Source: a virus (Duplodnaviria > Heunggongvirae > Uroviricota > Caudoviricetes). From it: a stretch of 34,309 bases of DNA. The DNA lies in IMG/VR virus record IMGVR_UViG_2872152978_000008; one strand, given 5' to 3'. This document shows positions 2,392 through 4,463 of this stretch, in pieces. The position numbers were made by a program, and so were the translations under genes. The number at the start of each line of letters is the position of its first letter. Position 1 is the first letter of the stretch. Under the pieces are notes generated by a model. That model was not told the origin of the DNA and did not search any database. It worked only from the letters and a program-made list of their open reading frames with translations.

Positions 2392-2577
2392 TTGACCATG
2401 TTTGATTACCAAGTTTCCAAACATCCATATTTTGATGAAGCCTGTCGTGCATTTGCACTGCGCCACAATCTGGTGCAACTGGCAGAACGTGCAGGCATGA
2501 ATGTGCAGATTCTGCGGAACAAGCTGAACCCAGCTCAGCCTCATTTATTAACCGCACCAGAAATCTGGCTGCTTTGA
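2392..2577 (+). pseudogene. cII: CII-like regulator truncated after ~60 aa by IS911
   Basis: [59 protein letters not shown] resembles the N-terminus of 186 CII (~169 aa, recalled). Its TGA stop is the first three bases of the IS911 left inverted repeat. Confidence 0.65.
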
Positions 2578-2646
2578 AGTGGCACACTGAATTTGGCCAC
2601 CTGAACAGAGGTGATATGCTCACCTCAGAACAACACAGGTGCTCCA

Positions 2647-2949
2647 ATGAAAAAAAGAAATTTTAGCGCAGAGTTTAAACGCGAATCCGCTCAACTGGTT
2701 GTTGACCAGAAATACACGGTGGCAGATGCCGCCAAAGCTATGGATGTTGGCCTTTCCACAATGACAAGATGGGTCAAACAACTGCGTGATGAGCGTCAGG
2801 GCAAAACACCAAAAGCCTCTCCGATAACACCAGAACAAATCGAAATACGTAAGCTGAGGAAAAAGCTACAACGCATTGAAATGGAGAATGAAATATTAAA
2901 AAAGGCTACCGCGCTCTTGATGTCAGACTCCCTGAACTGTTCTCGATAA
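2647..2949 (+). CDS. IS911 OrfA (HTH/leucine-zipper transposase N-terminal part)
   Basis: Translation [51 protein letters not shown]...; the track ORF starts 12 codons upstream of the likely Met. Confidence 0.85.
2898..2904 (+). other. A AAA AAG slippery heptamer for programmed -1 frameshift (OrfAB fusion)
   Basis: AAAAAAG lies near the end of orfA, and the orfB frame is -1 relative to orfA. Known mechanism for IS911/IS3 family. Confidence 0.7.
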
Positions 2950-2975
2950 TCGGGAAACTCAGAGCGCATTATCCT

Positions 2976-3815
2976 GTGGTCACACTCTGCCAAGTGTTCG
3001 GGGTTCATCGCAGCAGCTACAGATACTGGAAAAACCGTCCTGAAAAACCAGACGGCAGACGGGCTGTATTACGCAGTCAGGTACTTGAGCTACATGGCAT
3101 CAGCCATGGTTCGGCCGGAGCAAGAAGCATCGCCACAATGGCAACCCGGAGAGGCTACCAGATGGGACGCTGGCTTGCTGGCAGGCTCATGAAAGAGCTG
3201 GGGCTGGTCAGCTGTCAGCAGCCGACTCACCGGTATAAACGTGGTGGTCATGAACATGTTGCTATCCCTAACTACCTTGAAAGGCAGTTCGCCGTGACCG
3301 AGCCAAATCAGGTGTGGTGCGGTGATGTGACCTGTATCTGGACGGGTAAGCGCTGGGCGTACCTCGCCGTTGTTCTCGACCTGTTCGCAAGAAAACCAGT
3401 GGGCTGGGCCATGTCGTTCTCGCCGGACAGCAGGCTCACCATGAAAGCGCTGGAAATGGCATGGGAAACCCGTGGTAAGCCCGGCGGGGTGATGTTCCAC
3501 AGCGATCAGGGCAGTCATTATACGAGCAGGCAGTTCCGGCAGTTATTGTGGCGATACCAGATCAGACAGAGTATGAGCCGGCGCGGAAACTGCTGGGATA
3601 ACAGCCCAATGGAACGCTTCTTCAGGAGTCTGAAGAACGAATGGATGCCGGTGGTGGGTTACGTAAGCTTCAGCGAGGCAGCTCACGCCATAACGGACTA
3701 TATCGTTGGATATTACAGCGCACTAAGACCGCACGAATATAACGGTGGGTTACCCCCAAACGAATCGGAAAATCGATACTGGAAAAACTCTAACTCGGTG
3801 GCCAGTTTTTGTTGA
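2976..3815 (+). CDS. IS911 OrfB transposase catalytic (DDE) domain; coordinates from first in-frame Met
   Basis: 279-aa ORF in the -1 frame relative to orfA, typical IS3-family OrfB translation (…[34 protein letters not shown]…). Confidence 0.8.
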
Positions 3816-3857
3816 CCACTTCACGCCAGAGTTTTATTTGAGATCGCAAACAGGGAG

Positions 3858-4463
3858 GTGGCTTATTACAACATAAGGCAGGAGTTTAATTACTCAACTG
3901 AAATTACTGATTTCATGAAAGCGGTATATTTCCTGTATCTCAATCGTCACGGTTACCGTGGTTTATGTCGCTATAACAAGAGCGGGCATTTCAACATTCC
4001 CTACGGCAATTATAAAAATCCGTATTTCCCTGAAAAAGAAATTCGCGCATTTGCAGAAAAAGCCCAGCGAGCAACGTTTATCTGCGCCAGCTTTGATGAA
4101 ACGCTGGCGATGTTGAAGGCGGGGGATGTGGTGTATTGCGATCCACCGTATGACGGTACGTTTTCCGGCTATCACACTGATGGTTTCACTGAAGATGACC
4201 AGTATCACCTAGCATCCGTTCTTGAACATCGGTCATCAGAAGGACATCCGGTCATTGTTTCTAACAGTGACACATCCCTGATCCGTTCGCTGTATTGCAA
4301 TTTTACTCACCACTATATCAAGGTAAAACGCAGCATCGGTGTGGCAGCTGGCGAGGGTAAATCAGCAACAGAAATCATTGCTGTTTCCGGGCCGCGCTGC
4401 TGGGTGGGATTTGATTATTCGCGTGGCGTGGATAGTTCTGCCGTGTACGGAGTACGTGCATGA
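3858..4463 (+). pseudogene. Dam-like N6-adenine DNA methyltransferase, 5'-truncated fragment
   Basis: [35 protein letters not shown]...VVYCDPPY...HTDGF aligns by eye with the C-terminal ~2/3 of E. coli Dam (DPPY motif IV). The N-terminal AdoMet-binding region is missing; the fragment begins 34 bp after the IS911 right end. Confidence 0.75.

Follow-up and report, generated by a model that had tools for sequence, protein, structure and literature searches.

Organization of the prophage and its early region

The window, meaning the whole 34,309-nucleotide stretch of DNA analysed here (IMG/VR record IMGVR_UViG_2872152978_000008), contains a P2/186-like prophage of the Fels-2 type with its integrase gene at the left start. 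According to relatives, the integrase end adjoins the host genes rcdA and ybjJ, and the right end runs into host ybjL/grxA. From left to right, the early region comprises int (1-1053, minus strand), the CI repressor gene (1449-2018 or 1449-2024, minus strand), a 73-aa gene in the apl/cox position (2144-2365), a truncated cII (2398-2577, plus strand), a complete IS911 copy (2575-3823, plus strand), a dam remnant (3824-4463, plus strand) and, downstream of dam, the 5' part of replication gene A (4460-5985, plus strand), which is cut by an IS66-family element.

Window positions 1-12577 are 100% identical to CP026840.1. E. coli UPEC-245U carries an intact reference prophage at the corresponding chromosomal site; positions 1002-3575 and 5414-7575 of this prophage correspond to window 1-2574 and 3824-5985, respectively, at 99.65-99.7% identity. 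The region retains the gene order of the early lytic operon of 186/Fels-2-type phages (apl-cII-fil-...-dam-A), and either side of IS911 is >99% identical to intact E. coli prophages.

A complete IS911 copy between remnants of cII and dam

The cII open reading frame can be opened mechanically at TTG 2392, and in relatives it is annotated from ATG 2398. It comprises 59 codons of a 186-type CII protein (Phage_CP76) and ends, as the first-pass annotation had noted, on the first triplet of the IS911 left inverted repeat, which supplies its TGA stop (2575-2577). The remnant matches Pfam PF06892 with 64.5 bits over profile positions 2-53 of 146, whereas the intact homologue (169 aa) covers positions 1-146; the full-length CII domain is therefore not present in the 59-codon product.

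IS911 is a copy-out-paste-in insertion sequence of the IS3 family, first described in Shigella dysenteriae. The copy in the window spans 1249 bp, with junctions at 2574|2575 and 3823|3824. Its left end reads TGAAGTGGCACAC... (in longer form, the left inverted repeat is TGAAGTGGCACACTGAATTTGGCC) and its right end reads ...GTTGACCACTTCA at 3823, also given as ...GGCCAGTTTTTGTTGACCACTTCA. The termini, TGAAGTGG...CCACTTCA, are imperfect terminal inverted repeats of the TG...CA type: the left repeat (TGAAGTGGCACAC...) and the reverse complement of the right one (TGAAGTGGTCAAC...) match at 20 of the first 27 positions. Internally, orfA (2647-2949, plus strand) encodes a 100-aa protein with an HTH_Tnp_1 domain (Pfam PF01527), and an A AAA AAG heptamer (2898-2904, plus strand), placed in the X XXY YYZ register of orfA, marks the site of a -1 frameshift into the orfB frame (2904-3815, plus strand; open over 2892-3815), which carries the rve/rve_3 (DDE) domains of Pfam. 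Joined at the frameshift, OrfAB would be 389 aa long and scores 376.8 bits against NCBIfam NF033516 (IS3 family transposase), for which the cut-off is 160 bits. Judged against RefSeq copies, the element is 99.8% identical over 100% coverage to those annotated as 'IS3-like element IS911 family transposase', which also carry the 'programmed frameshift' annotation. In length, repeats, orfA size, frameshift heptamer and DDE-bearing orfB the copy agrees with IS911 as known, and from these sequence features it is complete and apparently functional.

On the other side of the element, homology to dam begins directly at 3824, abutting the IS911 right end, and runs from the third base of codon 73 to the stop of a gene that has 285 codons when intact. 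The first-pass annotation had placed a Dam-like fragment 34 bp beyond the IS. This distance agrees with the first in-frame start, GTG 3858, but the homology already extends from 3824, so the apparent 34-bp gap is dam coding sequence without a start codon. The only start options are GTG 3858 (201 aa) and ATG 3915 (182 aa), the latter being the one that gene callers choose. GTG 3858 is unlikely to be a real start because the Shine-Dalgarno-like AGGGAG directly abuts it, as read from the sequence. A consensus scan of the plus strand for an outward hybrid promoter at the junction of the right repeat and dam found no sigma-70-like site. The stop codon of orfB (TGA 3813-3815) and the dam remnant share a reading frame, and no further stop intervenes (region 3813-3860), leaving a single stop codon between OrfB/OrfAB and the Dam fragment; with a one-in-three chance, coincidence is the probable explanation.

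The Dam fragment aligns to positions 87-253 of 253 in Pfam PF02086 (D12 class) and to positions 88-266 of 267 in TIGR00571. Loss of the N-terminal third, as previously stated, is an accurate description of the domain, from which 86 of 253 Pfam positions are missing, but not of the protein, which has lost 73 of 285 codons (~26%). The fragment keeps the catalytic motif CDPPYDG, whose DPPY lines up with that in E. coli Dam structures. LKWAGxK and FxGxG motifs are what we take to be AdoMet-binding elements of the Dam N-terminus, and the lost residues 1-73 include LKWAGNK and VEPFAGS, leaving the fragment without its N-terminal AdoMet-binding region. Both lost motifs align to the N-terminus of E. 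coli Dam (PDB 2g1p, 4gol). With this region gone and no proper start, the Dam fragment is presumably dead, and the cII and dam open reading frames are pseudogene fragments.

The first-pass annotation had also described IS911 as fusing cII to dam. The two genes are indeed juxtaposed across the element, but no translational fusion is formed; a cII-Dam fusion protein was rejected because the entire IS intervenes and cII stops at its first triplet.

Extent and content of the deletion

Aligned to the 99.7%-identical UPEC-245U prophage, the sequences flanking IS911 map to positions 3575 and 5414, so that 1,838 bp are absent from the window. RefSeq annotation and Pfam assign to the lost stretch cII codons 60-169, fil (Phage_186_Fil), a DUF5347 gene, a DUF2732 gene, a TraR/DksA zinc-finger gene and dam codons 1-73. 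These losses, together with the interruption of gene A by the IS66-family element, are what distinguishes the window from the 186/Fels-2-type operon. By alignment, the 1,838-bp deletion and its gene content are shown, in agreement with the earlier proposal that the rest of cII, the early region between cII and dam and the 5' part of dam had been removed.

The intact cII-fil-DUF5347-DUF2732-TraR-dam module recurs in colinear form, with up to 96.8% identity, in 43 records of sequenced phages, counted at a minimum coverage of 80% of a 3-kb query; Escherichia phage vB_EcoM-813R9 and Klebsiella phage 4LV2017 are 96-97% identical across it. This colinearity indicates that the long module is the functional phage state. 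A reading without any deletion, in which cII and dam are naturally short and adjacent or the assembly was mis-joined across the repeat, has next to no chance of being correct: the UPEC-245U prophage and the 43 phage records hold the full module, the profile coverage of cII (2-53 of 146) and Dam (87-253 of 253) is partial, and the same junctions recur in complete assemblies and in independent short-read contigs (see below). We regard this reading as refuted.

Absence of a target duplication

The triplets that flank IS911 are CTT (2572-2574) and CGC (3824-3826) and do not form the 3-bp duplication usual for this element, which bears out what had been reported from the window. Near-identical IS911 copies in E. 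coli genomes served as controls, and three of the four have perfect 3-bp duplications (GGA, TAC and TAT) at boundaries assigned in the same way. Since these control copies, and two other IS elements in the window, are flanked by duplications, the missing one is genuine and does not stem from misplaced boundaries. Nor could a shifted boundary yield a duplication, because the flanks stem from sites 1,838 bp apart and are non-contiguous in the intact prophage. The deletion explains the absence, which is thus a property of the insertion event and not of the element. No microhomology was found at the deletion ends (CTT|ACC and TCG|CGC).

Distribution in Shigella

Many NCBI and Logan assemblies contain exact matches to the 59-aa cII product, the 182-aa Dam fragment or the CI allele (207, 71 and 268 index blocks, respectively). 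At every listed place of the three look-ups where the region is intact, both present junctions were found, and among the matches listed they are identical in complete assemblies at 10, 6 and 10 distinct places, respectively. Short-read contigs end 26-93 bp into the IS911 right repeat, the pattern that a repeated element should give. Nearly all recovered relatives have int called as two fragments, which agrees with the amber codon of the window (see below), and nearly all carry the IS66-family element in gene A. Because the junctions are identical in every related genome recovered, the lesion is old, ancestral to a Shigella clade and fixed in it.

Later changes are lineage-specific and include an IS1 inside IS911 orfA, flanked by the 9-bp duplication CACGGTGGC, and an IS3-family insertion between int and cI. 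Shared junctions followed by the lineage-specific IS1 insertion and a nested deletion (described below) make the locus a clean, datable marker of the Shigella clade. Across 5,426 complete E. coli genomes, queries that joined 200 bp of flanking sequence to the IS matched no record at a coverage of at least 80%, so that neither the deletion nor a simple-insertion precursor is present there.

Other insertions, decay and cargo of the prophage

Four IS elements are present in the prophage, two of them without duplications. The IS66-family element (5986-8424; orf1, tnpB and tnpC) lies in gene A within a perfect 8-bp duplication, CATTGACG; its transposase is split in the window (69 + 447 aa) and measures 512 aa in sister genomes. 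The first IS1 (10113-10880) lies between the DinI-like and ATPase genes and has an 8-bp duplication (AGCGGGCA), which identifies it as a simple insertion. The second IS1 (22274-23041) lacks a duplication, its flanks being ...AATGTCC and ATGCAGCC...; beside it, the window lacks ~4.6 kb that carries virion-morphogenesis, baseplate and tail-fibre genes in the intact prophage, and after it a segment of 495 bp (23042-23536) is inverted and a further ~1.35 kb is missing. This locus is another IS-associated deletion or rearrangement.

Point lesions add to the decay. An in-frame amber codon interrupts int at window 430-432 (minus strand), where position 431 is T in the window and C in the intact relative (TGG to TAG on the coding strand); in the Shigella relatives the two int fragments are mostly 207 aa and 103 aa long. 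The portal gene (13602-14625) has an in-frame stop and two frameshifts, and, compared with the intact relative, the tail sheath (24310-25478) and tape-measure (26490-29563) genes show one frameshift each. The terminase, scaffold, capsid, D and ogr genes remain intact. As a whole, the prophage is unable to lysogenise, replicate, excise or build virions.

The P2-type variable region carries a two-gene cargo encoding a 549-aa AAA ATPase (10977-12626) and a 293-aa protein (12610-13491) whose relative is annotated as an HNH endonuclease. The pair matches the A and B components of the PADLOC candidate defence pair PDC-M01 (E = 3e-55 and 1e-33, respectively), and both PDC-M01-like genes remain open reading frames in the otherwise decayed prophage.

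Origin of the deletion

In Shigella, IS1, IS911 and other insertion sequences break up genes and go along with deletions and rearrangements, and most of the conserved pseudogenes are ones disrupted by an IS (PMC7373316). The present prophage is a typical instance of this IS-driven genome degradation, with no difference seen, and the locus represents an ordinary case of IS-driven prophage decay in Shigella. As a worked example of stepwise erosion, its importance lies mainly in annotation, and it opens no new question.

The locus bears the features that define an adjacent deletion, namely an intact IS end exactly at the junction, flanks that are non-contiguous in the undeleted sequence and no duplication. 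IS3-family elements are reported to make deletions without duplications: among 83 IS events in lines of the long-term evolution experiment, 14 were deletions anchored on IS150, preceded by an insertion and often growing over time (PMC11708052). Our preferred reading, to which we assign a probability of about 0.55, is that an IS911 insertion followed by a transposase-mediated adjacent deletion produced the present locus. In the ancestor of the Shigella clade, IS911 would have entered the early lytic operon of a prophage integrated beside rcdA, at first by simple insertion at either the left or the right junction seen now. A transposase-mediated intramolecular event would then have linked the opposite IS end to a target close by, discarding the intervening 1,838 bp and leaving a single intact IS911 whose flanks had never previously been neighbours; the order of these events and the enzymology of the deletion are what we infer from the product.

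The parallel with IS3-family adjacent deletions, known from IS150 in the E. coli long-term evolution experiment and from IS3 with fused orfAB, is close: such deletions are anchored at one end, retain the IS and lack a duplication, and they grow, just as a sister genome of the window has a later, larger deletion at the same IS end. In contrast, the prior simple insertion was observed directly in the evolution experiment, whereas no intermediate was found here. A simple IS911 insertion in cII would read GTTGACCACTTCA + CTT + ACCGATCTGACTG, and one in dam would read GTTTATATCTCG + CGC + TGAAGTGGCACAC. The search patterns were the right repeat, 0-6 bases and the cII continuation, and the sequence upstream in dam, 0-6 bases and the left repeat. 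Neither precursor junction was found in GTDB species representatives and JGI metagenome contigs, a weak negative since Shigella is hardly represented there; the actual left junction likewise had no match among the GTDB species representatives, with the same sparse coverage of Shigella. The Shigella places listed in the exact cII, Dam-fragment and CI-allele look-ups also yielded no simple-insertion precursor.

These searches bear equally on a second route, in which two same-orientation IS911 insertions, one in cII and one in dam, were followed by RecA-dependent recombination that deleted one copy together with the 1,838 bp and left a hybrid IS. Its product matches the observed locus exactly, and the deletion of DNA lying between homologous IS elements is an acknowledged component of genome decay in Shigella (PMC7373316). 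The first-pass annotation had attributed the locus to an IS-mediated adjacent deletion; the UPEC-245U alignment upholds the deletion and its content, and the evidence from the locus agrees with adjacent deletion and with recombination between direct IS911 copies alike. Two genomes provide evidence that is favourable to the two-copy route. In CP026828.1 the left (cII) and right (dam) junctions lie on different IS911 copies ~200 kb apart (~3.91 and ~3.70 Mb, respectively), whose new flanks, TGT and TCA, are also mismatched, so that a rearrangement between IS911 copies has occurred within the Shigella clade and has split the prophage.

The second genome, CP026832, belongs to S. dysenteriae 14 ATCC 49346 (PMC10132075). 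It has the same IS911 and left junction as the window and a second, larger deletion anchored exactly on the right end of the element: in the segment 10178-12203, the right end of IS911 is joined to window position 6631, within the IS66 tnpB, and window 3824-6630 (2.8 kb) is gone, and with it what was left of dam, gene A's 5' part and the left portion of the IS66-family element. This anchoring on the right end counts in favour of adjacent deletion. CP026832 shares the IS1 in orfA, with its CACGGTGGC duplication, with genomes that still hold the dam remnant, and the nested deletion most parsimoniously postdates the IS1 disruption. As orfA was already broken by IS1, this deletion needed transposase in trans or homologous recombination, and its occurrence on such a copy is a further point for recombination between copies. 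Against the two-copy route at the ancestral locus, it demands two independent same-orientation insertions <1.8 kb apart, which we estimate, without computation, to be unlikely a priori; neither one such insertion nor a pair turned up in E. coli, in GTDB/JGI or at the listed Shigella places; and adjacent deletions by IS3-family elements are common and need one insertion (PMC11708052). We hold recombination between two copies to be a possible but less probable origin, and retain insertion followed by adjacent deletion as the preferred one.

Capture of IS911 at a double-strand break or deletion junction, with deletion and arrival as one event and no duplication, is compatible with the missing duplication and with the lack of a detectable intermediate, and such capture was put forward as a hypothesis for certain IS5 and IS481 events (PMC11708052). 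The IS150 cases, which involve an IS3-family element, were nevertheless all explained as stepwise insertion and subsequent adjacent deletion in that study, nothing at the present locus requires the capture route, and the negative precursor searches are weak; we therefore consider it very unlikely.

The deletions of 1.8 kb and then, in S. dysenteriae 14, of 2.8 kb could also be viewed as the work of an IS911 that acts as a repeated one-sided 'eraser', its IS1-broken transposase notwithstanding, with erosion perhaps favoured since it would lock in a dead prophage with an intact candidate PDC-M01. We consider this extension unlikely; if true, it would imply an efficient trans-acting IS911 transposase.

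A separate break occurs in contig PUGT01000594.1 (4272), where IS911 is cut after ~170 bp (window 2747) and joined to unrelated chromosomal genes for an ABC transporter and a nucleoside hydrolase, a further deletion at the prophage locus.
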